From assembly GCA_014874265.1 (NCBI GenBank), contig JACWAM010000069.1, positions 1 to 61,544 on the forward strand: a stretch of DNA of 61,544 nucleotides. Reading direction: 5' to 3'. The position numbers and the translations under genes were made by a program. This stretch comes from Thermoleophilia bacterium. Its GTDB lineage: Bacteria; Actinomycetota; Thermoleophilia; BMS3ABIN01. Below, piece by piece: positions 25,958-60,884 of this stretch. Under the pieces are notes generated by a model. That model was not told the origin of the DNA and made no database searches. It was given only the letters and a program-made list of their open reading frames with translations. How positions within the stretch are numbered: position 1 is the first letter of the stretch; every line of letters starts with the position of its first letter.

Positions 25958-26569
25958 ATGAAAATATTTATCGGAATAACGGGGGCCTCCGGCTCCATCT
26001 ACGGCGGGCGCCTGGTGCGCGCCCTGGTAGCCGCCGGGCACGAAACTACTGTCTGTTTTTCCGCCGGCGCCGTTGAGGTCATCCGGCAGGAAGAATATGA
26101 CGCCGGCCTGGAGCTTCTTGGCGCCGGAAGCGAAAAGGTTCTGGAGGCGTTTTTCTCCCGGCATGACATTTCACCCCAGGCTGTCGAGGTAGCGCTTCCG
26201 GATAATATTGGACACGCTTATTCCAGCGGCACGGCGCTTATGGACGGCGCCGCGGTCTGCCCCTGCTCCATGTCAACGGCCGCATCGATCGCGGCAGGGA
26301 TCACCGGCGACCTGATCCACCGGGTTGCGGGTGTGGCCCTGAAAGAGGCGCGGCCGCTGGTTGTGGTCCCGCGGGAGGCCCCCTTAAGCGAGATACACCT
26401 TCAGAACCTGCTCCGGATCAGACAGGCCGGCGGCCATGTTTTGCCGGCGGCGCCGGCTTTTTATCATAATCCGCAGTCGATCGAAGACCTGGTGGATTTT
26501 ATTGCCGGGAAGGTCCTGGACCTACTGGGAGCAGATCATCAGCTGTTTAAGCGGTGGGAGGGAATTTGA
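25958..26569 (+). CDS. ubiX: Flavin prenyltransferase UbiX
   Basis: GITGASGSIYG, CPCSMST, RVAGVALKEARPLVVVPREAP, PAAPAFYH. Confidence 0.93.
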   Translation: MKIFIGITGASGSIYGGRLVRALVAAGHETTVCFSAGAVEVIRQEEYDAGLELLGAGSEKVLEAFFSRHDISPQAVEVALPDNIGHAYSSGTALMDGAAVCPCSMSTAASIAAGITGDLIHRVAGVALKEARPLVVVPREAPLSEIHLQNLLRIRQAGGHVLPAAPAFYHNPQSIEDLVDFIAGKVLDLLGADHQLFKRWEGI

Positions 26570-27294
26570 AAGCCTCTTCCGGATTCCCGTCCTCATCCTT
26601 TCCCGAGCCCGCTCGCGTGCGGGCGATGTTTGGCGATATCGCCGGACGCTACGATCTGATAAACACCGTCATGACCGCGGGCATGCATCACCGCTGGCGG
26701 CGGCTGGGCGTCGAAGTATCGGCGCTTAAAGCCGGCGGCTCTGCCTTGGATGTGTGCTCGGGCACCGGCGATTTTGCCTTTGCCCTGGCCCGCGCCGCCG
26801 GTCCTCTTGGTTCCGTGACCGCAGTGGATTTTAGCCGCCGCATGCTTGCCGAGGCGCGGCGAAAGGCCGGGCGAGCCGGCCTGAACGTTGATTTTCACTG
26901 GGGAGACGCGACCAGCCTCGAGTTCGATGACGGCAGTTTTGACTCCTGCACGGTTGGTTTTGGCGTGCGCAACATTCCCGATCTGCATGCGGTGTTTTCC
27001 GAGATGAGGCGGGTGGTGCGACCGGGAGGGCGCGTAGTCTGCCTGGAGATAACCAGACCCACAAGAACGCCGTTTAGCCAGTTTTACGGGGTCTGGTTTG
27101 ACCGGGTGGTGCCCGCGGTCGGCCGGATGGTTTCCCGTAACGACACCGCTTATGGGTATCTCCCGGCGTCAGTGAGGCGGTTTCCGCCGGCCGATGCGCT
27201 GGCCGCGGTTATGAAAAACGCCGGCATCGACGACGTAACTTACAAACTTCTGGCCGGCAGTATCATTGCCCTGCACTGGGGCTCAGTGAGATAA
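26566..27294 (+). CDS. menG: Demethylmenaquinone methyltransferase
   Basis: MFGDIAGRYDLIN, LDVCSGTGD, GFGVRN, AYGYLPASV; TTGA overlap with ubiX. Confidence 0.9.
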   Translation: MKASSGFPSSSFPEPARVRAMFGDIAGRYDLINTVMTAGMHHRWRRLGVEVSALKAGGSALDVCSGTGDFAFALARAAGPLGSVTAVDFSRRMLAEARRKAGRAGLNVDFHWGDATSLEFDDGSFDSCTVGFGVRNIPDLHAVFSEMRRVVRPGGRVVCLEITRPTRTPFSQFYGVWFDRVVPAVGRMVSRNDTAYGYLPASVRRFPPADALAAVMKNAGIDDVTYKLLAGSIIALHWGSVR

Positions 27295-27305
27295 CGGAGC
27301 AAGCG

Positions 27306-28304
27306 ATGGCGCGACTTGAACAATCAGCGGTAACAAGCCCCATGGAACAGTTCAAGGAGCTGTATTGGGACCGCTTCCTGGAACCTGTGCGCAGCTGCGA
27401 GTCAAGACTGAAGCAGATTGCCGGACGTCCCGAAGCTCCGCTGGGAGAGCCGTGCACGCTGACGCTGGCGGCTGGTGGCAAACGGCTGCGTCCGCTGCTT
27501 GTGTTTATGTCGTCCCGGACGGGCAGCAAGGCCGGGGAGAAGCAGGTGCTGGCCGCGGCCGCTGTCGAACTGGTCCATATGGCTACCCTCGTGCACGACG
27601 ACGTGCTGGACGGCGCCAGTTTAAGGCGCGGGCAGCCAACCCTGTTGGAAAGATACGGCAAACACGTCAGCGGGGCTGCGGGCGACTATCTCTTTTCTGC
27701 CGCTTTTAAGCTGCTGGCGCAGACCGGCTTCGCCGGCGCCGTTTCCGTTTTGAGCCAGGCTAGCCTGGACCTGAGCCGTGGTGAACTGGCGCAAATGTGT
27801 GAAGGGTTTGACTACGGTCTCCCGGCGGCGTCGTACTTTGAGCGTTGCCGGCTGAAGACCTCAGGGCTGTTTATCGCTGCCTGCCGCCTGGGAGGAATGT
27901 TGTCCGGATGTTCCCCAGAGGTTATCGAAGCCGTCGGGCGATTTGGAGAGTACCTGGGTCTGTCTTTCCAGCTTGCCGACGATATCCTTGATTTCGAAGG
28001 AAGTCCGGAGGAGACAGGGAAGGAAAAAGGGACGGACCTTCGAGACGGGACGGTAACGTTGCCGCTGATTCTGGCGCTAAAGCTTGACCCAGGTGTCAGG
28101 GCGATGCTGAAACGGGACCCTTCACCAGCCGAACTGGAAAAGATTCGCCGGAGGGTGCAGGCAAGCGGGGGCATCGAGGAGACGCGGCGTCAGGCGCTGA
28201 CGTTTGCTAGGCAGGCGGTTACCGCTCTCGAACCGGCGGCCGGGGAACTGGACACCGAACCTCTGGCCTTGATGGCAGAGGCATCAGTCTACAGGCGGGC
28301 TTAA
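27306..28304 (+). CDS. Polyprenyl (heptaprenyl-type) diphosphate synthase
   Basis: GGKRLRP, HDDVLD (FARM), DDILD (SARM), KTSGLF. Confidence 0.92.
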   Translation: MARLEQSAVTSPMEQFKELYWDRFLEPVRSCESRLKQIAGRPEAPLGEPCTLTLAAGGKRLRPLLVFMSSRTGSKAGEKQVLAAAAVELVHMATLVHDDVLDGASLRRGQPTLLERYGKHVSGAAGDYLFSAAFKLLAQTGFAGAVSVLSQASLDLSRGELAQMCEGFDYGLPAASYFERCRLKTSGLFIAACRLGGMLSGCSPEVIEAVGRFGEYLGLSFQLADDILDFEGSPEETGKEKGTDLRDGTVTLPLILALKLDPGVRAMLKRDPSPAELEKIRRRVQASGGIEETRRQALTFARQAVTALEPAAGELDTEPLALMAEASVYRRA

Positions 28305-38063: not shown

Positions 38064-39098
38064 CTAACAGATCCGTGGCAGTTGTTCGCCCACGGGCATC
38101 CGGATGATCCTCAAGCCGCCCAGGACGGTGCGGGCAAAAACCCGAAAAGGGCCAGAGAACCCGGCTCCGGCGGCGGGATCAACCACCCGGCCGATAATCG
38201 CCGCTTCGGCGCCCAGGGGGTGGCTCCGCATCGCCGCCAGAACGGAACCGGCGTCATCCTCGGGAACGAAGGCCACGAGCTTTCCCTCATTGGCCAGGAG
38301 CAACGGATCAAGGCCAAACAGCTCGCAGGCGGCGCGCACTGACGGTTTCACCGGCAGCGTTTCTTCTTCGATTTCGATTGCCACCCCTGAGGCGGCGGCG
38401 ATTTCATTTAACGCCGCCGCCAGCCCGCCCCGGGTCGGGTCGCGCATCGCATGCACGCGGACGGAGGCCGCCAGCATCTCCCGGACGAGGCTGTTTAGCG
38501 GGGCACAATCACTTTTTAACATTGAATCAAATTCGAGCCCCTGCCGGCAGCTGAGGATGGCGACGCCGTGGTCTCCCAGGGTGCCGCTTAGGATGACGGC
38601 GTCCCCCGGACGGGCGCCGCGGCCGCTTGGGCTGACGCCCTCAGGAATCAGGCCGATGCCGCTGGTGGTGATAAAGACACCGTCGGCGGCCCCTCTTTCG
38701 ACGACCTTGGTATCGCCTGTCACTACCTCGACTTTTGCTTCGCCGGCAGTTGCCCGCATTGATTCCGTTATCAGCTTGAGCGTGTGGAGCGGGAGTCCTT
38801 CCTCAATGACAACGCCAAGAGCGATGTAGAGTGGAGTCGCGCCCATCACCGCCAGGTCGTTGACCGTACCGGTGACCGACAGGCGGCCGATATCTCCACC
38901 GGGGAAAAAAAGAGGAGAGACTACGTGCCCGTCGATGGTAAAGGCCAGCCGGCCTTGCACTTCCAGGCAGGCGGCGTCGTCCAACCGGTTCAGGATATTA
39001 TTTGCGAGCGCGCTGCTGAAAACTGATTCGACCAGTTCCCTGCCGAGCCGGCCGCCGCTGCCATGCGCCATCTGCACTGTTTCCGTATCATGCGTCAT
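38064..39098 (-). CDS. hypE: Hydrogenase maturation carbamoyl dehydratase HypE
   Basis: MAHGSGG, GGDIGRL, RDPTRGG, terminal LPRIC. Confidence 0.97.
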   Translation of the reverse strand: MTHDTETVQMAHGSGGRLGRELVESVFSSALANNILNRLDDAACLEVQGRLAFTIDGHVVSPLFFPGGDIGRLSVTGTVNDLAVMGATPLYIALGVVIEEGLPLHTLKLITESMRATAGEAKVEVVTGDTKVVERGAADGVFITTSGIGLIPEGVSPSGRGARPGDAVILSGTLGDHGVAILSCRQGLEFDSMLKSDCAPLNSLVREMLAASVRVHAMRDPTRGGLAAALNEIAAASGVAIEIEEETLPVKPSVRAACELFGLDPLLLANEGKLVAFVPEDDAGSVLAAMRSHPLGAEAAIIGRVVDPAAGAGFSGPFRVFARTVLGGLRIIRMPVGEQLPRIC

Positions 39099-39140
39099 TG
39101 TTTGAAAAACGGCGTCATGCTCTTATTAATGACAACTTAA

Positions 39141-40247
39141 TCAATCCTGAAACTCATACTGGTAGTAAGCGGCGCAGGTCCCCTCTGAGGAGACCATGCA
39201 CGGACCCACCGGGTGATCGGGGGTGCACGTGCGGGCGAAGCGGCGGCAATCGGGCGGGATTTTCTGACCGGTGAGGATCGCCCCGCAGATGCATCCGGCC
39301 GGCTCGCGCGAGTAGGACGCATCGACTGCAAAGACCCTGGCGGCGTCATGAGCGGCAAACTCTTCGCGAATCGTCAGTCCGCTTGCCGGAATCGTGCCGA
39401 GGCCGCGCCAGCCGGCGTCACAGGGGGCAAATACGGAATTCATCATCTCAAGCGCTGCGGGGTTGCCGCCGGGTCTGACGCCGCGGGCGTACTCAACCTC
39501 GACCCGGCAATCTCCGCTGTCCAGCTGGTCAAGGATCATGTTAAGGGATTGCAAAATATCAACCGTCTCGAATCCGGAAATGACACAGGGGATTCCCCGC
39601 TCCGCCAGCGGCCGGTATGGATCGGCTCCAATAATGGCCGAGACATGACCGGGGCAGAGAAAGGCGTCAACGGCCAGCCCGGGCATGCGGCAGAGGGCGG
39701 AGAGCGCCGGCGGCACCAGCTTGTGGGCGCTGTAAACAAAAAAATTGCTGGCGCCAGACTGCCTGGCCGCGGCGATCGCCGCGGCCACCGTCGGCGCCGT
39801 GGTTTCGAAGCCGACGCCGAAAAAAATCACCTTGCAGTCAGGGTTCTCCCTGGCCAGGCGGAGGGCGTCCAGCGTCGAGTAAACGATCTCGACCCGCGCC
39901 CCCCGGGCGCGGGCTCCTCCGAGGCCCATTCGCGTGCCCGGCACCTTGAGCATGTCGCCAAAACTGGCGGCGATGACGCCGGGCAGCAAAGACATCTCAA
40001 TAAAGCTGTCAATATCGTAATTGGAGGTGACGCAAACCGGGCAGCCCGGCCCTGAGATTAATCTGAGCCAGGCCGGCGACGCCTGCCTGATTCCGTGCCG
40101 GGAGATCGCCATCGTGTGCGTGCCGCAAACTTCCATGATCCGTACCGGCCTTTCCGGCCGGCGGTGAAGACGATCAAGCAGTCTTCCGGCGGGGCCCGAG
40201 GCTCTGAATTCGTCCAGGTAGGATAAAACCGGAAGATTATTCATCAT
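39141..40247 (-). CDS. hypD: Hydrogenase maturation protein HypD
   Basis: MEVCGTHT, GPGCPVCV, GFETT, GPCMVSSEGTC. Confidence 0.96.
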   Translation of the reverse strand: MMNNLPVLSYLDEFRASGPAGRLLDRLHRRPERPVRIMEVCGTHTMAISRHGIRQASPAWLRLISGPGCPVCVTSNYDIDSFIEMSLLPGVIAASFGDMLKVPGTRMGLGGARARGARVEIVYSTLDALRLARENPDCKVIFFGVGFETTAPTVAAAIAAARQSGASNFFVYSAHKLVPPALSALCRMPGLAVDAFLCPGHVSAIIGADPYRPLAERGIPCVISGFETVDILQSLNMILDQLDSGDCRVEVEYARGVRPGGNPAALEMMNSVFAPCDAGWRGLGTIPASGLTIREEFAAHDAARVFAVDASYSREPAGCICGAILTGQKIPPDCRRFARTCTPDHPVGPCMVSSEGTCAAYYQYEFQD

Positions 40248-40533
40248 CAGCCGCCGGCGTTTCCTTGAGACCCAAATCGCCATCTTCAGGGCCGGGTCCG
40301 GAGAGCCCGGGCCGGCCGCCTGGCGGCGCCAACTCCTCAAATAGCAGGAGCGTTTCCAGTGCTTCTTTTTTGTCAATCATACTGATGGCAAATCCGGCGT
40401 GAAGCAGCACATAGTCACCGGTCACCGCTTCCGGCAGAAGGACAATCGAGGCCTGTTTGCGCAAGCCTCCGATCTCAACGATCGCCTGCTGGCCGTCGGT
40501 TTCAATTATTTTAGCGGGAACAGCCAGGCACAT
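40237..40533 (-). CDS. hypC: Hydrogenase chaperone HypC
   Basis: MCLAVP start with GGAGGA SD; GDYVLLHAGFAI. Confidence 0.95.
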   Translation of the reverse strand: MCLAVPAKIIETDGQQAIVEIGGLRKQASIVLLPEAVTGDYVLLHAGFAISMIDKKEALETLLLFEELAPPGGRPGLSGPGPEDGDLGLKETPAADDE

Positions 40534-40534
40534 C

Positions 40535-43090
40535 TTAAAATCCTCCATCAGGTCCCGGGGATGATAAGGTCTTTTGTAAATCTTCCTGAGAGCCGGCCGC
40601 ATCAATATTTCCCGTTTTTTGATTTGATTTCAGATTCAGGGCCAGCGCCGCCTGGCCAAACGAAAGGCCGCCGTCACCCGCGGGAAGCTGCCGCTGGCAA
40701 AGCGGTTTCAGTCCTTGCTCTGTCAAGCCCCGGTCCACGAGCGCCAGCAGCAGGCGGTTCTGCCAGACGCCGCCGCTGAAGGCCACCATTCCTGAGCCGC
40801 AAAACTCCGCGGCGTCCAGGCAGGTGGCCACAATCGCCGCCGCCAGGCCCAAATGAAACCGGAGCGCCACGACTCCGGCGGTGACGCCCGCGGCAATATC
40901 ATCAATCATCGCCGCTACCGCCGGCGCCGGATTAACCTGCCAGGGCATGATATCTTTCTGTAGCAGAAACTGGTAACCGCCGGCCGCATGAGCGCCGGAT
41001 TCAAGCTCCTTCCTGGCCACTGTTTCCAGCTCCATCGGAGCCTGTGCCTCATACGTAACGGTTGATCGCAGTAATGCAATCGCCGCCACCGCGTCAAACA
41101 GGCGGCCGCAGCTGGAAGTTGGGTAGCAGTTTAACCCTGTTTCCATCTGTTTGATGATCAGCTCTTCATTGATGCGGGAGACGCCGAGGCGCCGGGCAAT
41201 AAAATCAGTCCATGCGGGAGCAAAAGTCCGGGTGAGAGCCAGCGCCGTGCGCCACGGACCGCGGACGCATGCGTCTCCCCCCGGCAGTGGAAAGTAAGTC
41301 AGGTGGGCGGTCCGTTTAAAACCGTCGCTGAGGGTCCCCGTAAAAAATTCGCCTCCCCAGACGGCGCCGTCGTCGCCCAGGCCGGTGCCGTCCAGGGCAA
41401 CCCCGACGGCCGGCCCAGAAACTCCGTGCTCCGCCAGGCAGGAAGCGATGTGGGCGCGGTGGTGCTGTACGGTCAGGACAGTCTTGCCGGATTCGAGGCT
41501 GCGCTCGCGCGCGTAAGCCGTGGAAACGTAGCCGGGATGGCGGTCGCAGATAAATCTTTCGGCCCGGGTGCGGAAAAGAGTCTCGTAAAGTTCCGCCGTC
41601 CGCTGATAATGGACCGCCGTCGCCAGGTTTTCCAGGTTGCCGATATGTTGTGACACAAACGCGTCTTCGCCTCTGGTCAGGCAGAAGGAGCTCTTCAGGT
41701 CTCCGCCGGCCGCCAGCAGCGGTTCTGGGCGCCGGGGCCGGGCGGGGCCCGGCGCGTGCGGCAACGCCGGCTGCTCCGGGCGCGGCGAGAAAGGTGTCCT
41801 CGCGGCAGGCGGAGACAGCCTGATCGGCAGCGGGGCGTATCCCCGGGCCCGTCTGATCATCATTGGCAGATCCCGGTCGTCAAGCGCCACGACGCTGTCG
41901 TCATATGTTGATAATATACCACGGTTGTGAAGAAGAAACAGATCGGCGACGCCGGCCAGCCGCGCGAGCGCCGCTTCATTGCTGCCACAAATCGGCTCCC
42001 CGGTTACATTGCCGCTCGTCATTACGAGAGGCGCTCTAATCTCAGCCATAAGCAGAAAATGAAGCGGCGTATACGGAAGCATCACGCCCAGTCGGTCAAG
42101 GCCGGGTGTGACTTCCCCGGCGACGCTGCCGCCGTCGCGGTCAAGCAGCACGATCGGCCGCTCGGGGGAAGTAAGCAACCACTTTGCCGCCGGGGATATC
42201 CTGCAGGTCAAAGCCGCTTCCGCCAGGGAGGGCATCATCATCGCAAAAGGCTTGTCTGGCCGGTGCTTTCGCTTCCGGAGCAATTGCACCGCCGGTGCGC
42301 TCTCAGCCAGGCAGGCCAGCTGAAAGCCGCCGAGGCTTTTAAGGGCGACAATTTTGCCTGCCGCCAGCGCCGCCGCCGCTTCGCGCACGGGATCGGCGGC
42401 TGCCAGCGGTGAGCCGTCAGGGCCGGTGAGCCACAGGGAAGGCCCGCAGTCAGGGCAGGCATTCGGCTCCGCATGAAAGCGCCTGTTGGCCGGATCGTCA
42501 TATTCATCGCGGCAGGCGGGACACATCTCAAATTTATTCATGGACGTCAAGTTACGGTCGTAGGGCAGGCCGGCGATAATGGTGAATCTGGGACCGCAAT
42601 TCGTGCAATTGATAAAAGGGTAGCGGTAACGGCGATCGCCGGCGTCGAATAATTCCGCCTGACAGTCACCACAGGTACAGCTGTCGGCGCCTACCAATCC
42701 CTCCGGACCGCCGGCGCCATCCGAGGCGGTGATCTGGAAATCATCGTAACCGGCCGCTTCCGCGGTGACGACTTTAATGGCAGTAATTACGGCCCGGGGC
42801 GGCGGTGATTTTTGCAGGGCCCGGATGAAGGAATCAATCCCGGCACCCGGGCCTTCAACATTAATCCTGACGCCGGCGGCGGAGTTGAGCACGCGGCCGG
42901 AAAGGCCCCGGGATACCGCCTCCCGGAAAACAAAGGGCCGGAAACCGACTCCCTGAACAACACCCACAAGCTCGATATCAACTCGCGAGACCCCGGTTCC
43001 CTTTACCGGCGCAGTCATCAATTCAGGGCCGGCGCCCGAAATTTGCCGTTTTTTCAATCGATGCTCGCCGCTGTCCGCCGTTGCTGTCAT
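40535..43090 (-). CDS. hypF: Carbamoyltransferase HypF
   Basis: GVVQGVGFRPF, zinc fingers (CTNCGPR, CPAC, CPDCGP), QHHRAH, LDGTGLG, GDGGLSFGQ. Confidence 0.97.
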   Translation of the reverse strand: MTATADSGEHRLKKRQISGAGPELMTAPVKGTGVSRVDIELVGVVQGVGFRPFVFREAVSRGLSGRVLNSAAGVRINVEGPGAGIDSFIRALQKSPPPRAVITAIKVVTAEAAGYDDFQITASDGAGGPEGLVGADSCTCGDCQAELFDAGDRRYRYPFINCTNCGPRFTIIAGLPYDRNLTSMNKFEMCPACRDEYDDPANRRFHAEPNACPDCGPSLWLTGPDGSPLAAADPVREAAAALAAGKIVALKSLGGFQLACLAESAPAVQLLRKRKHRPDKPFAMMMPSLAEAALTCRISPAAKWLLTSPERPIVLLDRDGGSVAGEVTPGLDRLGVMLPYTPLHFLLMAEIRAPLVMTSGNVTGEPICGSNEAALARLAGVADLFLLHNRGILSTYDDSVVALDDRDLPMMIRRARGYAPLPIRLSPPAARTPFSPRPEQPALPHAPGPARPRRPEPLLAAGGDLKSSFCLTRGEDAFVSQHIGNLENLATAVHYQRTAELYETLFRTRAERFICDRHPGYVSTAYARERSLESGKTVLTVQHHRAHIASCLAEHGVSGPAVGVALDGTGLGDDGAVWGGEFFTGTLSDGFKRTAHLTYFPLPGGDACVRGPWRTALALTRTFAPAWTDFIARRLGVSRINEELIIKQMETGLNCYPTSSCGRLFDAVAAIALLRSTVTYEAQAPMELETVARKELESGAHAAGGYQFLLQKDIMPWQVNPAPAVAAMIDDIAAGVTAGVVALRFHLGLAAAIVATCLDAAEFCGSGMVAFSGGVWQNRLLLALVDRGLTEQGLKPLCQRQLPAGDGGLSFGQAALALNLKSNQKTGNIDAAGSQEDLQKTLSSPGPDGGF

Positions 43091-43110
43091 TTCCTGGAAC
43101 CGTCAGCCCG

Positions 43111-43779
43111 TCAGTCGGCTGCTGGGGCGGCCCGGTTGGCGGCAGTGGCTCCGGTCAGCCACTCACCCCATCTGGCTACTCCGCTATCTTCCTTACAGGA
43201 AAGCTCAAGGATGGGAGCGGCCGGGTTGAGCGTTGTGACTACCTGCCGGAACCGCGGCAGGTCAAAATCGCAGTAGGGAAGCAAATCAATCTTATTCAAA
43301 AGGACCAGGTCCACCTGCCTGAACATGAGCGGATATTTATGCGGCTTGTCGTCGCCTTCGGCAATGCTGGCGATCATCACCCTGGCCGTCTCTCCCAGGT
43401 CAAATTCAGCGGGACAGACCAGGTTGCCGACGTTTTCAATCACGATCAGGTCCAGGAGGTCGAGATCAAGGTAGTTCAGGGCGGAGGTGATCATCAATGC
43501 CGTTAAATGGCAGGAGCCGCCGGTATTGATCTGGAGCGCCGTGACACCCATCGCTTCGATGATCAGGGAATCGACCTCGGAAGCGATGTCGCCTTCGATC
43601 ACCGCCATTTTCAGCTCCGGCGCCCGCTCGATGGCCTTGATGATGGCGCTGGTCTTGCCGGCGCCGGGGGATGCCATCAGGTTGACCATAAAGACGCCAT
43701 GGCGCCGCAGCCGCTCCCGGTTTTTACCGGCAGCGGAGGCGTTGCTGGCCAGTATATTTTTATTGACCTCAATTCGCAT
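43111..43779 (-). CDS. hypB: Nickel-insertion GTPase HypB (short form; alternative start 43866)
   Basis: SPGAGKTS, NTGGSCHL, ENVGNLVCPA, EGDDKPHKYP, NKID. Confidence 0.95.
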   Translation of the reverse strand: MRIEVNKNILASNASAAGKNRERLRRHGVFMVNLMASPGAGKTSAIIKAIERAPELKMAVIEGDIASEVDSLIIEAMGVTALQINTGGSCHLTALMITSALNYLDLDLLDLIVIENVGNLVCPAEFDLGETARVMIASIAEGDDKPHKYPLMFRQVDLVLLNKIDLLPYCDFDLPRFRQVVTTLNPAAPILELSCKEDSGVARWGEWLTGATAANRAAPAAD

Positions 43780-43931
43780 GCTTTCCGACTGCCTTCCGGT
43801 CCCGCCACGGCGATATCTGTTCAAATCCCGCGCAGACCTGTTTAAATCGGTAAATCGATGGCTCATGAATCGCCGGACTGGTTTTTGACAAAAGCTGCAA
43901 AACGCGCACGTGAAACTTTATCCGGCGTTTT

Positions 43932-44273
43932 TTAATCCACCTCAATGCTTTCAACAAACATTTCCTGTCCCTGCTTGATATCAAACATCGGTGAGCCGCA
44001 GTCGGGGCAGGCATAAAAGGCGTGACGCGGCTCGAACCGGCTGCCGCATTCCAGACAGACCGCCTTTGCCGGCAGATTGATAAAATTGAGCAGCGCGCCT
44101 TCGGCGACCGTACCCCGGGAAAGCTCGCCAAAATAAAACTCAATCGATTGCCCGGAAAAAGTTGATAGTTCTCCCAGGATGATGTTGATTGACCCGACGC
44201 GGGCGGCTCCCGCTCTGGTGGCCTCGTCCTGAACGATCGCGATGATATTCTCGGTGACGGAGTACTCGTGCAT
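43932..44273 (-). CDS. hypA: Nickel metallochaperone HypA
   Basis: MHE start, CLEC and CPDC zinc sites. Confidence 0.96.
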   Translation of the reverse strand: MHEYSVTENIIAIVQDEATRAGAARVGSINIILGELSTFSGQSIEFYFGELSRGTVAEGALLNFINLPAKAVCLECGSRFEPRHAFYACPDCGSPMFDIKQGQEMFVESIEVD

Positions 44274-44281
44274 GGACGGAT

Positions 44282-44827
44282 TTACCGGACGGCAAGACTC
44301 AGCCGGCGCTCGGGGGTTAGGCCTGCGTCAATTATCAAATCAATAGTAATATTGCATACACGTGTCAAACACAAACGCACTTTTTTTGACATTGCTTCAT
44401 CTTGCGGGTCATCTTTGCCTGGCTGGACGCCGATGATCGTCACCGGCGGGCGGGTGCCCCGGCGCCTGGCAGTTTTCAGCGCGTCCATGAGCGCATCATC
44501 ATGCAGGATGATGCTGCTCTTGGACAAGGTGTCTATTTCATCGGCGTTAAACATGAAGATGCTTCCCGGTTTTGAGCCGGACTGAACCGCGGCAATGACA
44601 ACGGCCTGATCCGCCGCCCCCAGCAGCGCGAGCAATGACAAACCGGCGCCGGCTGTGTCGACCACAGAGACGCCGGGGGGAAAGATGTACTCTTCGTTAA
44701 GCTTCTTGACCGCCTGTACGCACAAGCCGGCGCCGCCGGCGCCCAGGACCAAGAATCTTTCCACCGTCCGGTCCCCGTCTCTGCCCCAAAAACCTGGCTC
44801 ATCAAAAGGATCGTGGAAGATCATCAT
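44282..44827 (-). CDS. Degenerate hydrogenase maturation protease-like protein
   Basis: HupD/HyaD-like layout (VLG.., VVD, GSKPGSIF, LHD, IIGVQP), but the GNxxxxD[DE]G segment is deleted and vDA is AA. Confidence 0.7.
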   Translation of the reverse strand: MMIFHDPFDEPGFWGRDGDRTVERFLVLGAGGAGLCVQAVKKLNEEYIFPPGVSVVDTAGAGLSLLALLGAADQAVVIAAVQSGSKPGSIFMFNADEIDTLSKSSIILHDDALMDALKTARRRGTRPPVTIIGVQPGKDDPQDEAMSKKVRLCLTRVCNITIDLIIDAGLTPERRLSLAVR

Positions 44828-44867: not shown

Positions 44868-45401
44868 TCATCCGCTACGCCTCCTTTGTTTGTGCCAGCA
44901 TCTGATTTCTTCGAGAACCAGCGCCTGAACCCTCCCGGCGGCAGCGGCCACCGCCGGCGTCAGCTGCCTGTCGTTCGGCCGGACGTCGCCGACCTGGATC
45001 CCGAAGATAATTACCTCCGGGCAGGCCCCCCGCAGCCGGGCGGTTGTCAGCAGGTAACCGACGCCCATGCCATGGATGTTGTTTGAGCGAAGGCCGGTAA
45101 CCCCCGCCTCATCCGGATGAAACCGGAAGATGTCTCCCGGCTGGGCGCCGGCGGCGATGGCGTCGACGACTATGACCAGCCTTGACTTGAGGAAGTAACG
45201 AACGTTGGCCATGCTGGCGGCGCCGCCAATAATAAATTCTACATCTCTGTTAATATCGCCGGCCTTGAGGTTCTCGACCACTTCAACGCCAACGCCGTCA
45301 TCTCCCATAAAGATGTTGCCGAAGCCGATAACGGCCACCAGGGACGACGTTTCTTGCGGTGCCCGCCGGACGCAGCTCCGGTCTGGGGCGGCGCCGGTCA
45401 C
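44868..45401 (-). CDS. Hydrogenase maturation protease (HyaD/HupD family)
   Basis: GFGNIFMGDDGVG, VVDAI, NIHG, FGIQV; GTGA overlap with the cytochrome b stop. Confidence 0.92.
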   Translation of the reverse strand: MTGAAPDRSCVRRAPQETSSLVAVIGFGNIFMGDDGVGVEVVENLKAGDINRDVEFIIGGAASMANVRYFLKSRLVIVVDAIAAGAQPGDIFRFHPDEAGVTGLRSNNIHGMGVGYLLTTARLRGACPEVIIFGIQVGDVRPNDRQLTPAVAAAAGRVQALVLEEIRCWHKQRRRSG

Positions 45402-46048
45402 GCCCGGCTGTCTTTCTCCGGTTTTTCGCGGCCGACTTCTTTCCAGAGGAACATCAGGGGAACCTCCCAGATGACTTCCGCAAATACCAGATAGACATGC
45501 ACGGCGACCGAAATGATGAAGATCCACATGATCCAGTAATGGATCGTGGTCATGGCGGCGAGGCCGCCGAAGAAATAAGTGACGGGCTGGAAAAACGATT
45601 TCGTCGGCTCCCAGATGGCGGCGCCGGAAATCCCAGCCAGAATGCCCAGCAGGATCCAGAACAGGTAGGTTGCCTTCTGCAGCGGATTGAATTTCATCTG
45701 CTGCGGATAGTCCTTGCGGAGGAAGAGGTAATACTGGATTGTCCTGAGTGCCTGATGGCCCGATCCCCTATGAAACCAGAACCAGTGGAAGTCAGGATAG
45801 CGGCGGCGTTTTCCAACCGCCGCGGAGCCGCCGCCGGCAAAGGCCCAGTAAATTCTGACTACTCCATTGAGGAGAAACACCCACATAAAGATGAAGTGCA
45901 GGTTTCGATTGATATTCATGGCGCCGCCGTAATAAGGCCGCCAGATGTAAAATCCGGTGGCGATCAGCACGAACAGGGACACCAGGTGGACACCGTGCAT
46001 GATCACCGCCGGCAGCGGATGCTCCTGTCTTGTCGGTGGAACCTTCAT
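45398..46048 (-). CDS. Ni/Fe-hydrogenase b-type cytochrome subunit
   Basis: Heme-ligand His in MHGVHL, LHF, IHY, VHVY; FNPLQK motif; 4 TMs. Confidence 0.92.
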   Translation of the reverse strand: MKVPPTRQEHPLPAVIMHGVHLVSLFVLIATGFYIWRPYYGGAMNINRNLHFIFMWVFLLNGVVRIYWAFAGGGSAAVGKRRRYPDFHWFWFHRGSGHQALRTIQYYLFLRKDYPQQMKFNPLQKATYLFWILLGILAGISGAAIWEPTKSFFQPVTYFFGGLAAMTTIHYWIMWIFIISVAVHVYLVFAEVIWEVPLMFLWKEVGREKPEKDSRA

Positions 46049-46051
46049 CGC

Positions 46052-47680
46052 TTACCTGACCTTGAATTTTAGGACCCTGTTTGATTCCGGTTCAATCACG
46101 TGAACCGCGCACGCCATTCATGGGTCGAAAGTGTGGACTACTCTCAGGATCTCCAGCGGTTTTGCGGGATCCGCCACCGGCGTACCTACCAGGGTTTCCT
46201 CAACGGGACCGCGGACTCCCTTGTCGTCACGCGGCGACAGATTCCAGTTGGATGGCGGCACCGCGGCGTAAGCGTCCGTCTTGCCGTCTTTTATTCGGAC
46301 GTAATGGCACAGAGCGCCCCGGGGAGCATCCCAGCCGCCGACACCGGTGCCGCTGCCGTTCAGATCGATTTCCCGAAATACCTGGTTGTTTCCCTTGCCG
46401 ATATTTGTCAGAAGCTCATCGGCCCAGCCAACCGCATTGTCCGCGTTTATTTTTGCTTTCAGCACCCGGGCGGCGATCCGGCCCAGATTTGACATCAGGA
46501 TCTCAGGCTTGCCGGCGGCGCCGATCTGCGCCAGCGTGCTGTCAACCAGCGATTTGACGTCGGCGCTTCCGGACGCATACGCAACCAGCATCTCTGCCAG
46601 CGGTCCCACTTCCATCGGTCGGTCCTGGTCCGTGAGCCGGACGGCCTGGGTCCAGTCGTACTTTCCATCGGGAAGCTGATCGCCCTCCAGCGGCGGCAAG
46701 GCGGTGAAATCAATCGGTTCCTGGCCGGAGTCGAGCGGATGCTTGCCGGCGCCGACCGAGTCATCAAACCACGAATGTTTGGTATACCGCCGGGTCATGC
46801 CGGGATCGACCTTCTGCACCGCGAGCTTGCTGTCAAACAGAGCCCCCCGGGGGAATAGCCGGTCGTAAGGATCCTGGCTCGGCGCGTCAAGTACGCCCCA
46901 GGTCAGGTAATTGCCCACGCCCTTGCCCGTCTGCGCCAGGTCAATATAGTAGGGCGCAAGCGCCAGCAGGTCGGGGACCATCACCGTGTTGACAAAATCC
47001 TGCACCTCTTGCATTCGCGCCTTGTAGAACATGATCTCGTCGTAGGCGGGCAGCTGCGTGACGCCGCCGGGGATCATATGATGGATCATCGGGTAGCGGC
47101 CGCCCAGGATGCTGTTGGCCTCATTGGCTTTGGCCTGGGCGTCGATTGCCTGCAGGTAATGCGCCGTCAGCTCCAGGTTGAGGTCGGGCGGCAGCTTGTA
47201 TCCGGGGTGGTCCCAGTACATGTTGGCAAAAGGCCCGAGCTGTCCGGACTGGATGACCGCCTTTACCCGGTCCTGCACCGCCATCAGCGACGGCGTCGTC
47301 GGCTTGGCGTTGAGGGCGTCGGTGACGTTGACATAATCGAAGGCATTCAGTATATAAAACCAGAGGATGTGGTCGTAGCCGATCTGGGCTGCTTCGGTCA
47401 TGTTGCGGATCAGCCTGGCGTTATCATCCACCTTCTCGACACCCAGCGCCCGCTCCACCGCCTGCACCGAATTAATCGCGTGCGGATTCGGACAGACACC
47501 GCAGATGCGCTGGGCAAACTGCCAGACGCTGCGGGCGTCCCGGTTTTTCATGAAGATTTCAAAACCGCGAAAGAGAGTGGAGGTATTCCAGGCGTCCGTG
47601 ACCTTGCCGCCTTCCACCTGGCACGTGATGCGCAGGTGGCCTTCAATCCTGGTAATCGGGTCGATGACGACTTTGGTCAT
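46052..47680 (-). CDS. hysA: [NiFeSe]-hydrogenase large subunit (542 aa; UGA at 46120-46118 read as Sec521), group 1a-like
   Basis: DPITRIEGH; L1 QRICGVCP; reading through UGA gives FDP-U-MACAVH plus a 15-aa tail to TAA at 46054-46052; SECIS-like hairpin follows. Confidence 0.93.
46088..46107 (-). promoter_or_regulatory. Bacterial SECIS element
   Basis: CGGUUCA-CGUGAU-UGAACCG 7-bp stem; apical loop begins 18 nt after UGA with G at loop position 2. Confidence 0.8.
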
Positions 47681-48861
47681 TGGCTGCCTCCCTTGCTGGA
47701 TTTATCTGCTTTTTCCGTCTCAGCTAAACTTGGTTGGTCCACTGGTCCCTGTTCCTGGGAAAGCGGCCCTCCCTTTCCCATGCGACCCCTGGCGGTCTGG
47801 ACAATCGCATGGGCGGCGATGCCCACCGCCGTGGCGCCGCCGAGAACTTCGCCGATCGCCACCGGGGAGACGTCTCCCGGGATTCTGATCCCCGGCTCCT
47901 TGCTGTAAAACGGCGTTAGCTTGTCCCAGAAGCCAGGCTCGGAGCACCCGATGCACGGTCCCGCCTTGACCGGCCAGCTTGTATCCCCATTCCATCTGTT
48001 TACGGGGCAGGGCGCATAGGTTACCGGCCCCTTACATCCTACTTTATACAGACACCAGCGTTTGCGGGAACCTTCGTCGCCGAACTGCTCGACAAACTCA
48101 CCATTGTCAAAATGGCCGCGGCGTTCGCAATTGTCATGGATCGTCTGGCTGAACAGGAATGTGGGCCGGCCGATGCCGTCCAGTTCCGGCAGCTTTCCGT
48201 TGACAAGGATGTAGACCAGGATGGCAATCGTGTCTTCGGCTTGACCCGGGCAGCGCGGCGAATTGATGACCACTGCGTCCGGGATGCCGCCTTTGCCGCG
48301 AAGGTAGTCGCGAACGCCCTGGGCGCCGGTGGGATTTGGAGCCGCTGCCTGGATATTGCCGTAGCAGGCGCAGCTGCCAATGCAGATCGTGCCCTTGGCT
48401 TTCCTGTAGGTATCGCGGACAATATCCATCGACGTGCGCCCGTGGACGGTCATGGCGCCAGGGATTTTCACGGCGATGGCGCCTTCGATAATGTAATAAA
48501 AATCACCGGAGTTAACCGTGTCATCAAAGCTCTTTTCCGCCTGGTCGCCGGCGGGAGCCATGACTGCTTCGTGGTAGTTAAGAGAAATCTGCTGCAGGAT
48601 CAACTGGGCTGGATCGGGCTTGCGCGCTTGAAGCAGGTTGACAGAGCACCCGAGACATTCCTGAAACAGCGACCAGACCACTTGCGGCCGCCGCGCCAGC
48701 GTCTCCAGCGCATCGGCCACCTGCGGCACCCCCATCGGGCCGGAAAGGCCGATCACAGACGCAAGCAAGCCGCAGAATTTCAAAAAATCGCGGCGGGAAA
48801 GTCCGGGAAACAGGGGCGCCTCTTCATCGGGTGAGTGATTGTGATTATCAGCCAAGACCAT
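47677..48861 (-). CDS. Hydrogenase small subunit with Tat signal and C-terminal TM anchor
   Basis: GGGAGG SD before ATG 48861; SRRDFLK Tat motif; ECLGCS, GSCAC, PRCPG, HDNC, CLYKVGCKGP, CIGCSEP. Confidence 0.95.
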   Translation of the reverse strand: MVLADNHNHSPDEEAPLFPGLSRRDFLKFCGLLASVIGLSGPMGVPQVADALETLARRPQVVWSLFQECLGCSVNLLQARKPDPAQLILQQISLNYHEAVMAPAGDQAEKSFDDTVNSGDFYYIIEGAIAVKIPGAMTVHGRTSMDIVRDTYRKAKGTICIGSCACYGNIQAAAPNPTGAQGVRDYLRGKGGIPDAVVINSPRCPGQAEDTIAILVYILVNGKLPELDGIGRPTFLFSQTIHDNCERRGHFDNGEFVEQFGDEGSRKRWCLYKVGCKGPVTYAPCPVNRWNGDTSWPVKAGPCIGCSEPGFWDKLTPFYSKEPGIRIPGDVSPVAIGEVLGGATAVGIAAHAIVQTARGRMGKGGPLSQEQGPVDQPSLAETEKADKSSKGGSQ

Positions 48862-58931: not shown

Positions 58932-60820
58932 CTAGGACAATCCCAGCTGCTGGCGTTTATCCTCGATGTGCCTGGCGATCATCGCCGCCGCGCTTTCCGG
59001 CTCATCGTCAACGGCGACCCGGCCGCCGGTAAGGCCTTCGATGTCCTGAGTCAGCACCCGCGTGACCAGGTCGCTGCCGGTCACGGGCGGAACCGGCGAC
59101 AGGTGCGTAAGCAGTCCGTAGGCGACCGCGAAAAAGGCATCCGCGACTGCTTTCTGCTCCAGCCATTCGGGCGCCGACACGGCCACCGGCAGCTCGGAAA
59201 TATCAACGTCAAGCACGTCCGCAACTGCGGCGGCAATGTCAGCGATGCGGCCGATGTCGGTACACGATCCGAATGACAGCACTGGAGGCACCCCCAGGGA
59301 TTCACAGACAGCTTTGAGGCCAGGACCGGCCTTGCCGGATGCGTCAGCACCGGTGAGGCCAGCGTTTTGCACGGTCGAGCTGGTGCAACCGCCGGTGACT
59401 ACCAGGATGTCGCTTGCGATCAAGCGCTCGGCTATGCCGATGATGTTGCCGCCCCTTGCTTCCGGGCCGGCGGTGGTGCAGCCAACTACAGCAGCGATTC
59501 CCCGGATGGAGCCGGCGGAGATCGCGTCCACCAGCGGCTGGACGCTGCCTCCCAGCGCCGCCACCATCGATTCAGTGGAAAACCCGGCGATACTGCTTTG
59601 GCTCTCTTCGGGAATGTTCGCTTCGCCGCGTTCGCTGAAAGCGGCCACCGCCTGCCGGAGGATTTCCCTGGCGGTCTCGCCGGCGGTTTCCGGCGTGTGT
59701 TCCAGGCGCTCAACGCCGCTCATCCGCACCGCCTGGTCGGTAGTGACCAGCCGCGTGGAAAATCGCTCGGCATATTCCGGCAGCGAAGGGATCGAGCAGT
59801 TGTAATCCATCATCACCAAGTCAACGGCGCCGGTCCCCAGCACGAATTCCTGGTGCAGCCAGTTGCCCAGCTGGCCGGCGAAGCCGCTGTTGCCGCCGTC
59901 CCTCTGAAACAGCTCCTGGCCTTCGCACATGGAACCGTAGACCTTGATGCCCGCGGCTCCGGCTGCGGCAGCTTTCTGCGCGAACTCTTCGCTGGCAGCA
60001 AGCTCCGTCACCAGCGACGCCAGCAGCGGCTGATGGCCGTGAGCGAGATATTGACCGTTGCCGGGTCCAGCATGCCCAGATTTGTCGAATTACCGCCGAT
60101 GCCGGCGCCACCCATGAGGATATCCTGGAGCCGGTTGATGGCGTGCAGGCCGGCGTAAGCATTGGCGATGGAGAGCTTCATCGCTGTCAGCAGCAGGTCA
60201 ACCGGATCATTGTTGACGTTTGTCATGCATTTGACCAGGGCGGTGCGGATCTCGGCATTGACGCCGCCGGGCATGACGCCCAGCTGGCGCCAGGCGGCCA
60301 CCCGCCTGGCCGGCGCCAGAGCCTCCACCAGCACCATCTCTTCGTTATCGGGCTTATTGATCTCATGAATGATCAATGATGCAACTTCCTGCGCAAGTCC
60401 GGCAGTGGACCGGCCGGCGCTGATTCCCAGCGTTGCCGCCAGCGCCGCGAGCCGGGAAGCGTCCCTGACGTTGAAGGCGCCGCCACTGCCCGCGGCAAGG
60501 AGCGCCCGCGCCGCATTTTCTGCATGATAAGTGTTACCGGCAGTACCGATAGCGGCCTTCTGCAGCAGGTTGCGCGACACGATCAGGTCTGGTGAAGAGC
60601 CGCAGACACCCGCCGGCGATTTGGCCGTGATCCGGCAGGGCCCGTTGGCGCACAGGGTGCAGCAGGTTCCCGTAAGGCCCTGCTTGCACTGGGGCTGCTG
60701 ACTTTCATAACGGTCAAAAACAGTGGTCATGCCCGCTTCGTGGACTGCTGCGTCCAGCGAGCACAGGGCAGGGTCGTCGCAGAGGCCGAAATCAACCGTG
60801 TCTGATTTCCGGTTTTGCAT
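58932..60820 (-). pseudogene. cooS: Anaerobic CO dehydrogenase (CooS)-like gene, ~629 aa, with a 1-nt frameshift at ~60041-60043 (true lesion or sequence error)
   Basis: 5' ORF has QPQC, CCTLCANGPC, GVCG. 3' frame begins HGHQP and has YNC, VGC, GGC, GSCTD, EQKA. Adding one base restores a single ORF. Confidence 0.85.
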
Positions 60821-60884
60821 GTGCGCTCCTCTCAAGAGTTGTTAGTTACGCCCCGGCGTTATCAGGCGGGCGCGCCACACAATA

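Follow-up and report, generated by a model that had tools for sequence, protein, structure and literature searches.

A Cytochrome b-Linked Selenocysteine Hydrogenase of Uncultured Actinobacteria with a Predicted [3Fe-4S] Medial Cluster

Introduction

Hydrogenases that carry selenocysteine (Sec) at the nickel site, the [NiFeSe] enzymes, have three [4Fe-4S] clusters, whereas standard [NiFe] hydrogenases have a high-potential [3Fe-4S] cluster at the medial position of the relay (PMC8020662). Here, we analyze a hydrogenase operon in which Sec and the medial-cluster residue of the standard enzymes appear to occur together. The operon lies on the complementary strand of contig JACWAM010000069.1 (61,544 nucleotides, positions 1 to 61,544, the whole of which is called the window below) from the genome assembly GCA_014874265.1 of a Thermoleophilia bacterium (Actinomycetota, lineage BMS3ABIN01), and it encodes a small subunit, a large subunit and a cytochrome b. 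An earlier sequence-only reading of this stretch had proposed a hybrid electron relay, in which a Sec large subunit works with a small subunit of the standard type.

The closest described systems fall into several groups. Gene clusters annotated as “[NiFeSe] + cytochrome b” have been reported in the Firmicutes Syntrophaceticus schinkii, Thermacetogenium phaeum and Carboxydothermus hydrogenoformans (PMC5113046, PMC3551663). The HydDB classification lists [NiFeSe] variants for groups 1a, 3a and 3c only and none for group 1i (PMC5037454), and the paper on the 1i enzymes of cultured Anaerosomatales makes no mention of Sec (PMC9686372). Medial clusters have also been altered in the laboratory: the P238C substitution turns the medial 3Fe cluster of Desulfovibrio fructosovorans into a 4Fe cluster (Rousset 1998, as cited in PMC6695573), and a conversion of the central cluster of the F420-reducing [NiFeSe] hydrogenase of M. 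voltae from 4Fe to 3Fe is cited as having reduced uptake (Bingemann & Klein 2000, as cited in PMC8020662).

Results

Proline at the Medial-Cluster Site of the Small Subunit

The small (electron-relay) subunit of 394 amino acids is encoded at positions 47677–48861 of the complementary strand and was identified by profile search (TIGR00391 hydA, 320.9 bits with a cut-off of 179.5; PF01058 and PF14720 were also matched). It is the sole group 1 small subunit in the 2.0-Mb, 97% complete genome. Its cluster-ligand motifs align unambiguously to those of solved enzymes: Cys69, Cys72, Cys164 and Cys204 are the proximal ligands, His242, Cys245, Cys270 and Cys276 (the HDNC...WC...GC motif) are the distal ligands, and Cys285, Cys303 and Cys306 are the medial ones. 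The fourth medial position is occupied by Pro297 (SWPV; codon CCG at 47971–47973, complementary strand). Pro297 (SWPVKAGPCIGC) aligns with Pro241 (NWPVAAGHPCIGC) of the solved D. desulfuricans enzyme 1e3d_A, which corresponds to Pro238 of D. fructosovorans, the alignment ranges of the D. fructosovorans chains being offset by exactly 3 residues. It also matches the conserved proline of 3ayx_B and 3rgw_S, and all solved enzymes in the alignment have proline there. The medial proline named in the sequence-only reading is thus confirmed, with no other cysteine aligned at this place.

The protein bears a twin-arginine translocation (Tat) export motif, RRDFLKF, at residues 23–29 (48775–48795, complementary strand; TIGR01409, 25.6 bits with a cut-off of 16.7). 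At its C-terminus, a transmembrane anchor that had likewise been read from the sequence is evident at about residues 336–354 (47800–47856, complementary strand) as a hydrophobic helix with a 19-residue Kyte-Doolittle mean of 1.57, and the alignment with two membrane-bound enzymes, 3rgw_S and 3uqy_S, extends over this region as far as residues 356–373. The start codon, an ATG at 48861, has a GGGAGG Shine-Dalgarno sequence 8 nucleotides 5′ of it and a promoter-like site about 140 nucleotides 5′; the stop codon (47677–47679) and the large-subunit start share an ATGA overlap.

Predicted Selenocysteine in the Large Subunit

The large (catalytic) subunit is encoded at 46052–47680 of the complementary strand and has 542 amino acids when TGA is read as Sec (PF00374, 495.6 bits). 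Codon 521 is an in-frame TGA (46118–46120, complementary strand) that places Sec in the motif DPUMACAVH. This motif is followed by 15 in-frame codons and then TAA, so that 21 codons lie past the TGA; they include the Ni-ligand cysteine, the histidine cleavage site and a typical C-terminal extension, and the frame is kept in dozens of genomes. Among loci L001–L017 (small-subunit identities of 53–96%), the close relatives with sequence at this site number 15, and all of them have TGA together with the MACAVHVIEP frame. Relatives with at most 50% small-subunit identity among the first 80 related loci have TGC or TGT at the Sec site, without exception.

A hairpin resembling a Sec insertion sequence (SECIS), CGGUUCA-CGUGAU-UGAACCG, with a stem of 7 bp and a GU-containing loop, starts 13 nucleotides past the TGA (46088–46107, complementary strand). 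It was the only consensus helix when 21 members of the clade were folded with RNAalifold, and in the same sequences its synonymous sites are nearly invariant while adjacent synonymous sites vary. The genome also contains selA (587 bits), selB (376 bits) and tRNA-Sec side by side in a compact cluster on another contig (C100:15354–18987). Because the downstream frame is conserved, the hairpin is present and selA, selB and tRNA-Sec are encoded, we predict that the TGA is decoded as Sec. If the TGA were instead a true stop, the large subunit would be truncated, the operon would be a decaying pseudogene and the relay signature would be irrelevant. Gene callers do terminate at this codon (they give a 520-residue open reading frame in the window and a 523-residue product in locus L346), but the retention of a 21-codon frame in dozens of genomes, the conserved hairpin, the Sec machinery, and the intact hyp cluster and protease gene adjoining the hydrogenase genes speak against decay, and we give this explanation practically no credence.

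One relative of the window's subclade, L002 (JARRRH010000457.1), has DAU in place of DPU and a longer, different C-terminal tail (VIEQQHGGVLPTDFEQ...). Its medial proline codon is CCT. This copy may be divergent or decaying.

Congruent Histories of the Two Subunits

Among PDB entries, the small subunit best matches 1h2a_S, the standard enzyme of D. vulgaris Miyazaki (E 6e-84; 286 bits, compared with 171–175 bits to Hys), and the large subunit scores 434 bits to D. fructosovorans and about 272 bits to Hys. The raw identity of the small subunit is 51% to a standard enzyme (L018) but 37–38% to 1i or Hys types, whereas the large subunit stands at about the same distance from the standard and the 1i/Hys types. 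The identities could be expected of a true hybrid, in which a Sec large subunit had been joined by recombination or operon shuffling to a small subunit of the standard [3Fe-4S] lineage; the PDB scores, which favor standard enzymes over Hys for both subunits, speak against one. Separate trees of 90 sequences each were built for the two subunits, together with a careful concatenated tree from which the medial column had been removed.

The same 21-sequence Sec clade was recovered with the small and the large subunit (Shimodaira–Hasegawa-like approximate likelihood ratio test, SH-aLRT, 97 and 100, respectively), as was the same 10-sequence subclade with medial proline, hereafter the Pro subclade (97 and 99). 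The order of its outgroups (L168, L171, L015) is identical in both trees. In the concatenated tree, the Sec clade and the Pro subclade each have support of 100/100, and both lie inside a 39-sequence superclade (99/97), every other member of which has medial cysteine; the standard Pro-type enzymes and Hys form clades of their own outside this medial-Cys superclade (100/100 each). In the tree of the small subunit by itself, the Sec clade is sister to the standard clade, modestly supported (SH-aLRT 90–92), as the hybrid explanation would call for.

A first approximately unbiased (AU) test also seemed to favor a hybrid, since the small-subunit data rejected the large-subunit topology (p 0.005); the grouping found in the small-subunit tree itself was rejected as well. 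Drawing the tree traced the rejection to a single outgroup sequence, L271. With L271 removed, the large-subunit topology explained the small-subunit data slightly better than the free tree did (log-likelihood, lnL, +1.07; p-AU 0.53), and the large-subunit data mildly rejected the alternative topology (p 0.026). The branching order within the Sec clade is equal for both subunits. Furthermore, the nearest relatives, with 60–68% small-subunit identity, carry cysteine, which argues that the proline was not inherited from a donor of the standard type, and the four small-subunit residues fixed on the stem (see below) are not what would be expected of a swapped subunit. A recombinational origin is therefore very unlikely. 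Because the subunit trees are congruent and no significant AU conflict persists without L271, the sequences indicate that the small and large subunits share one history and that the enzyme is not a mosaic; in this respect, the hybrid relay of the sequence-only reading is not borne out.

L271 and L272 are metagenome-assembled genomes (MAGs) labelled Deltaproteobacteria/Deferrimicrobiaceae, and the two subunits of L271 fall in different clades. Its small subunit, which has medial cysteine, groups with a Nitrospirota-type clade that has cysteine at both the nickel site and the medial position (Cys/Cys); in the concatenated tree, L271 stands beside a Thermovibrio enzyme of the standard type (100/99), and imposing this position lowers the fit of the small-subunit data by 62 lnL units (p 0.005). 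L271 may be a genuine subunit swap. A separate observation concerns P0095, a small subunit from a 2-kb Logan contig whose N-terminal part is similar to the Sec clade (FQECLGCSVNLL) and whose C-terminal cluster region is similar to standard Pro-type enzymes; it reflects either recombination or chimeric assembly.

Direction and Specificity of the Cys-to-Pro Change

In all three trees, the Pro subclade is nested among cysteine forms. Because its successive outgroups all have cysteine, the change can be polarized, on sequence grounds, as Cys to Pro on the stem of the window's subclade. Six differences are fixed between the subclade and its nearest cysteine relatives, two in the large subunit and four in the small subunit (V84P, Y237F, C297P and G330D), and there is no new cysteine or obvious substitute ligand among these six. 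Across 13 subclade genomes, the medial codon is CCG 12 times and CCT once, compared with TGC or TGT in 19/19 Sec relatives; all three codon positions have changed (TGC to CCG), for which at least two non-synonymous steps are needed. The window enzyme and the nearest cysteine forms are 60–68% identical in the small subunit and 68–75% in the large subunit. The residues that flank the proline are not conserved (NGDTSWPV, NGNNSWPV, NANTAWPV), and one relative, L189, has valine at the medial position.

Because proline occupies the site at which standard enzymes have a [3Fe-4S] cluster, a 4Fe-3Fe-4Fe relay is predicted. By the same analogy, the medial cluster would be [3Fe-4S] and would have a higher potential than in other Sec enzymes. 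Alternatively, the proline could be neutral or compensated: the cluster could be a [4Fe-4S] held by three cysteines and a non-cysteine ligand (Asp, Ser or water), or the cluster type could be physiologically irrelevant and the residue the outcome of drift. According to PMC6695573, P238C in the D. fructosovorans enzyme changed activity slightly, with oxidation slightly worse and evolution better, and intramolecular electron transfer was not rate-limiting. Medial residues have flipped several times in group 1, and the valine of L189 would also fit this alternative. Still, neither a cysteine nor any other conserved candidate ligand was fixed on the subclade stem, and the flanking residues vary. 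The TGC to CCG change, which takes two steps at the minimum, has been retained in 13 species-level genomes and about 27 clusters over about 30% divergence, and the proline is shared with all solved enzymes in the alignment, the medial cluster of standard enzymes being reported as [3Fe-4S] (PMC8020662). We thus regard a neutral or compensated proline as unlikely and prefer the [3Fe-4S] prediction.

Distribution of Sec, Cytochrome b and Medial Proline

A group 1 large subunit was found in 96 genomes of a 401-genome sample of the window's phylum, many of them with one in-frame TGA. Among 30 loci fetched, all 15 of the Sec type have a cytochrome b gene directly after the large subunit. The combination of Sec and cytochrome b is therefore the rule in a mainly actinobacterial clade, whose members are labelled Thermoleophilia, Coriobacteriia and Ca. 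Aquicultor MAGs, and the cytochrome b that the sequence-only reading had counted as an oddity is the normal partner throughout this lineage.

Medial proline is another matter. Among 233 distinct small subunits with known partners, the nickel-site/medial residues are Cys/Pro in 94, Cys/Cys in 31, Sec/Cys in 93 and Sec/Pro in 14. Small subunits partnered with Sec thus number 107, and all 14 that have proline belong to one subclade, so that the predicted relay, which had been called unusual, is indeed a rarity among Sec hydrogenases. The 75 Coriobacteriia loci include 44 with Sec and medial cysteine and 15 with cysteine at both sites (group 1i type, including Anaerosomatales and Eggerthellaceae labels); Sec with proline was found in none of the 75, and none of the 44 Sec enzymes of the 1i type has proline. 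Put differently, 44 of the 59 group-1i-type loci with a readable large-subunit C-terminus (within L204–L278) carry Sec, in the motif DPU[ILVM]GC; the Eggerthellaceae members (Paraeggerthella, Eggerthella) have cysteine instead of Sec (DPCTAC) and medial cysteine.

Scanning a whole collection of 185,579 species for the DNA pattern encoding HxFDPUxACxVH gave 59 matches. In the fetched blocks that contained the small subunit, it had medial cysteine in 32 cases and proline in 9, all 9 in the window's subclade. Further Sec-type MAGs labelled Bacillota or Deltaproteobacteria have medial cysteine. No combination of Sec and proline was found outside the clade in the Hys sample from Desulfobacterota, nor in a 401-genome sample of the phylum of the Bacillota-labelled MAG (2 matches, one of them spurious). 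A search with the Sec-clade alignment gave mostly standard enzymes among the matches listed, and these were used as outgroups only.

In a collection of 5.8 billion proteins, proline is present in 28 of the best 120 homologue clusters, 24 of which form one clade (SH-aLRT 99). Outside it, P0035 has proline along with a Sec partner and cytochrome b, both confirmed; P0048 and P0073 are proline forms on contigs too short for a partner check, and the remaining proline form is the chimera-like P0095. A single origin of all 27 proline forms was not rejected (p-AU 0.5), and medial proline may have arisen one to three times in the Sec lineage. Altogether, the lineage with Sec and proline comes to about 13 genomes at the species level and some 27 protein clusters, spread over about 30% sequence divergence.

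The dsrA gene is present in 11/11 genomes of the Pro subclade, compared with 5/17 of the cysteine-type relatives. A causal link between the proline and sulfite respiration was considered and set aside, as the pattern reflects one event in the phylogeny and dsrA also accompanies medial cysteine in Ca. Aquicultor. In the window's 2.0-Mb genome, two dsrA genes exceed the curated cut-off (C27:21403–22563 and C95:31339–32484); two copies are also found in several relatives from the Pro subclade.

Cys166 and the Proximal Cluster

The sequence-only reading had pointed to an extra cysteine near the proximal cluster. This residue, Cys166 (48364–48366, complementary strand), lies two residues past the proximal ligand Cys164 in GSCACYG. 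Its presence is confirmed, but it is not special: 1e3d_A, a solved standard enzyme of the O2-sensitive type, has GTCACYGG at that place, and the position is occupied by C, T, S, A, V or H across the 233 distinct small subunits and by C, T or S inside the Pro subclade. Should Cys166 alter the proximal cluster, for example, toward the 6-Cys [4Fe-3S]-like form of O2-tolerant enzymes, it rather than the medial proline would be the odd feature of the relay. Its closeness to Cys164 and its enrichment in the Pro subclade (10/14, compared with 8/93 in other Sec relatives) fit such a role. However, the identical motif occurs in 1e3d_A, fellow members of the subclade have threonine or serine at position 166, and the supernumerary cysteines of O2-tolerant enzymes fall elsewhere, at what we take to be Gly71 (ECLGC) and Asn169 (GSCACYGN) of the window's small subunit. 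Solved enzymes of the O2-sensitive type carry glycine at both equivalent sites. The window enzyme thus lacks the two supernumerary cysteines that mark O2-tolerant group 1d, Cys166 being at a different, non-ligand position, and a modified proximal cluster is extremely improbable.

Proximal ligands do vary among more distant relatives. In Nitrospinota loci (L020, L024, L027, L030–L033, L040, L042 and L050), aspartate replaces the second proximal cysteine (ECTGDSEAF), and in Nitrospirota-type loci (L028, L047, L049, L055, L058, L064 and L069), it replaces the first (SD[ST]GCTE).

Operon Partners and Genomic Setting

Directly downstream of the large subunit lies the gene for a di-heme cytochrome b membrane subunit of the HydC/HyaC type (45398–46048, complementary strand; 216 amino acids; PF01292, 93.2 bits with a cut-off of 30.1), as the sequence-only reading had it. 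Its TIGR02125 score, 102 bits, is under the equivalog cut-off of 121.5. The protein has four hydrophobic segments, and His18, His51, His170 and His184 are invariant in 25/25 sequences. Next on the same strand are a hydrogenase maturation endopeptidase, the start codon of which is uncertain (44868–45305; PF01750, 62.5 bits; TIGR00072, 67 bits), and a second maturation-protease paralogue (44282–44827; PF01750, 52.9 bits) that is apparently degenerate, with VLGAGGAGLC replacing the GNxxxxDDG loop. The hypA, hypB, hypF, hypC, hypD and hypE genes follow at 38064–44273, also on the complementary strand; TIGR00100, TIGR00073, TIGR00143, TIGR00075 and TIGR02124 were all matched over cut-off, and hypC was identified by reading the sequence (MCLAVPAK...).

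The quinone genes cited in the sequence-only reading are also present. On the forward strand, at 25958–28304, profile matches identify a ubiX-family flavin prenyltransferase (TIGR00421, 175.7 bits), a menG/ubiE methyltransferase (TIGR01934, 227.2 bits) and a polyprenyl diphosphate synthase (TIGR02748, 207 bits, below the cut-off of 456.55). They lie about 20 kb from the operon and are not members of it. The genome further contains an MqnA/D-family gene (the futalosine route to menaquinone), and no match to the cytochrome c3 family (PF02085) was found in the 97% complete assembly. The locus thus has the features of membrane-bound, quinone-reducing uptake hydrogenases (HydABC/HyaABC), namely, a Tat signal, an anchor, a His-ligated distal cluster, a four-histidine cytochrome b and medial proline; together with the menaquinone genes and the lack of a cytochrome c3 match, this supports the quinone coupling that had been suggested for the selenium enzyme.

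At the far end of the window, the catalytic subunit of an anaerobic CO dehydrogenase (TIGR01702) is encoded at 58932–60835 of the complementary strand by two open reading frames with a 4-nucleotide overlap. They span model positions 7–251 and 263–621, which points to a frameshift or a sequencing indel.

Discussion

The sequence comparisons indicate that the two subunits have evolved together within a single, mainly actinobacterial clade of Sec hydrogenases linked to cytochrome b, a clade distinct from Desulfovibrio Hys. We consider it likely that the window encodes a periplasm-facing, membrane-anchored H2-uptake Sec hydrogenase (small subunit, large subunit, cytochrome b) that is not a mosaic, belongs to a subclade in which cysteine was replaced by proline and has the predicted 4Fe-3Fe-4Fe relay. 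On the model of the homologous Wolinella HydABC and E. coli Hyd-1, small and large subunits would be exported by Tat as a folded dimer via RRDFLKF. H2 would be split at the Ni-Fe-Se site of the large subunit, and the electrons would move from the proximal [4Fe-4S] to the medial cluster, then to the distal [4Fe-4S] cluster with its histidine ligand and on to the two b hemes. The hemes would then reduce menaquinone, with a proton-motive redox loop supplying dsr respiration.

Several points weigh against this interpretation. The small-subunit tree resolves only weakly how the Sec clade is placed, at depth, with respect to the standard enzymes, and by raw identity, the small subunit is nearer to a standard enzyme. 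The [3Fe-4S] assignment is drawn from one residue and from analogy. Switches at that position occurred repeatedly in group 1 (in Nitrospirota-type Cys/Cys enzymes, in L271 and possibly in P0035 and P0048/P0073), and the replacement may thus matter less than supposed. The in vitro effect described for P238C was slight. The menaquinone genes are distant general housekeeping genes, and all relatives are MAGs.

In evolutionary terms, the enzyme appears to represent a natural [NiFeSe] lineage with a [3Fe-4S] signature, confined to a small group of uncultured, dsr-bearing actinobacteria. A further-reaching proposal, which we hold with as much doubt as belief, is that these would be the first [NiFeSe] hydrogenases in nature to have a [3Fe-4S] medial cluster and that the proline, fixed one to three times, would tune a normally reversible enzyme prone to H2 evolution toward uptake into the menaquinone pool of dsr-bearing Actinomycetota. 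An effect on catalytic bias toward uptake is speculation, although laboratory precedents, by analogy, point modestly in that direction.

If the interpretation is right, the sister enzymes that have kept cysteine (60–75% identical) offer a ready natural experiment on the role of the medial cluster. To our knowledge, Sec and a 4Fe medial cluster have so far been separated only by mutagenesis (P238C, the M. voltae conversion and Hyd-1 C576U). The lineage described here would combine Sec, the 3Fe signature and cytochrome b naturally and would thereby dissociate these traits without mutagenesis. Matched natural pairs could reveal how the medial cluster sets catalytic bias, O2 behavior and quinone coupling in selenium enzymes, which are of interest as catalysts of H2 production. 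More generally, Sec hydrogenases linked to cytochrome b occur commonly among anaerobic Actinomycetota and are easily missed because gene callers end the large subunit at UGA.

Of the known systems, HysAB of D. vulgaris Hildenborough and Desulfomicrobium baculatum (group 1a; PDB 2WPN, 1CC1) resembles the window enzyme in having Sec in DPUxxCxxH, Tat export, a periplasm-facing location and a His-ligated distal cluster. The two are 36–37% identical and form separate clades (100% support). All 11 Hys-type loci fetched from Desulfobacterota, one of them over the NCBIfam HysA cut-off, have Sec and NWC[VI] at the medial position, in line with the W-C-V motif that the sequence-only reading attributed to Desulfovibrio-type small subunits; where Hys has the cysteine of NWCV, the window enzyme has Pro297. 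The window enzyme falls below the cut-offs of the NCBIfam Hys models (NF033181, 485 vs. 600; NF045518, 359 vs. 780; and NF045520 for the small subunit, 210 vs. 470). Hys-type small subunits are short (about 306–335 residues as extracted, one of 414) and are taken to be without a membrane anchor, whereas that of the window enzyme is anchored. The electron partner of Hys is cytochrome c3; the window has a cytochrome b gene downstream, in a genome with no match to the cytochrome c3 family.

Group 1i enzymes of the Coriobacteria type (Anaerosoma tenue, Parvivirga hydrogeniphila, Eggerthellaceae; PMC5037454, PMC9686372) are likewise from Actinomycetota. They share with the window locus the operon order small subunit, large subunit, cytochrome b and protease (the first three being an actinobacterial order characteristic of group 1i), an anchored small subunit, membership of the medial-Cys superclade, frequent Sec and a proposed menaquinone-linked anaerobic H2 respiration. 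The window enzyme is 38–46% identical to them and forms its own 100/100 branch, and the medial residue is cysteine in 59/59 of the 1i enzymes for which the nickel-site residue of the partner could be read. The Firmicutes clusters, which encode a Tat signal along with small, large and cytochrome b-like subunits, are a precedent for Sec with cytochrome b at the level of annotation only; the Bacillota-labelled Sec-type MAG examined here has medial cysteine, unlike the window enzyme.

The standard membrane-bound enzymes, i.e., Wolinella succinogenes HydABC, group 1b/1d enzymes such as E. coli Hyd-1 (HyaABC, 4GD3) and the R. eutropha membrane-bound hydrogenase (3RGW), have the predicted relay signature of the window enzyme (a four-Cys proximal site, medial proline and a distal site of one histidine and three cysteines), the anchor helix and the four-histidine di-heme cytochrome b, and standard enzymes are the best PDB matches for both window subunits. 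In contrast to the window enzyme, they have cysteine at the nickel site and form a separate clade (99–100% support); the window enzyme is also without the supernumerary cysteines of group 1d. The closest counterpart in composition is artificial: the C576U variant of E. coli Hyd-1 is a Sec enzyme with a [3Fe-4S] medial cluster and cytochrome b, which is the combination predicted here (PMC8020662). The M. voltae variant is a cluster conversion of the same type, carried out in the laboratory on a selenium enzyme. It was reportedly made by a Cys-to-Pro change. Whereas these two and P238C are laboratory constructs, the combination predicted for the window enzyme is natural, fixed and conserved across a clade.

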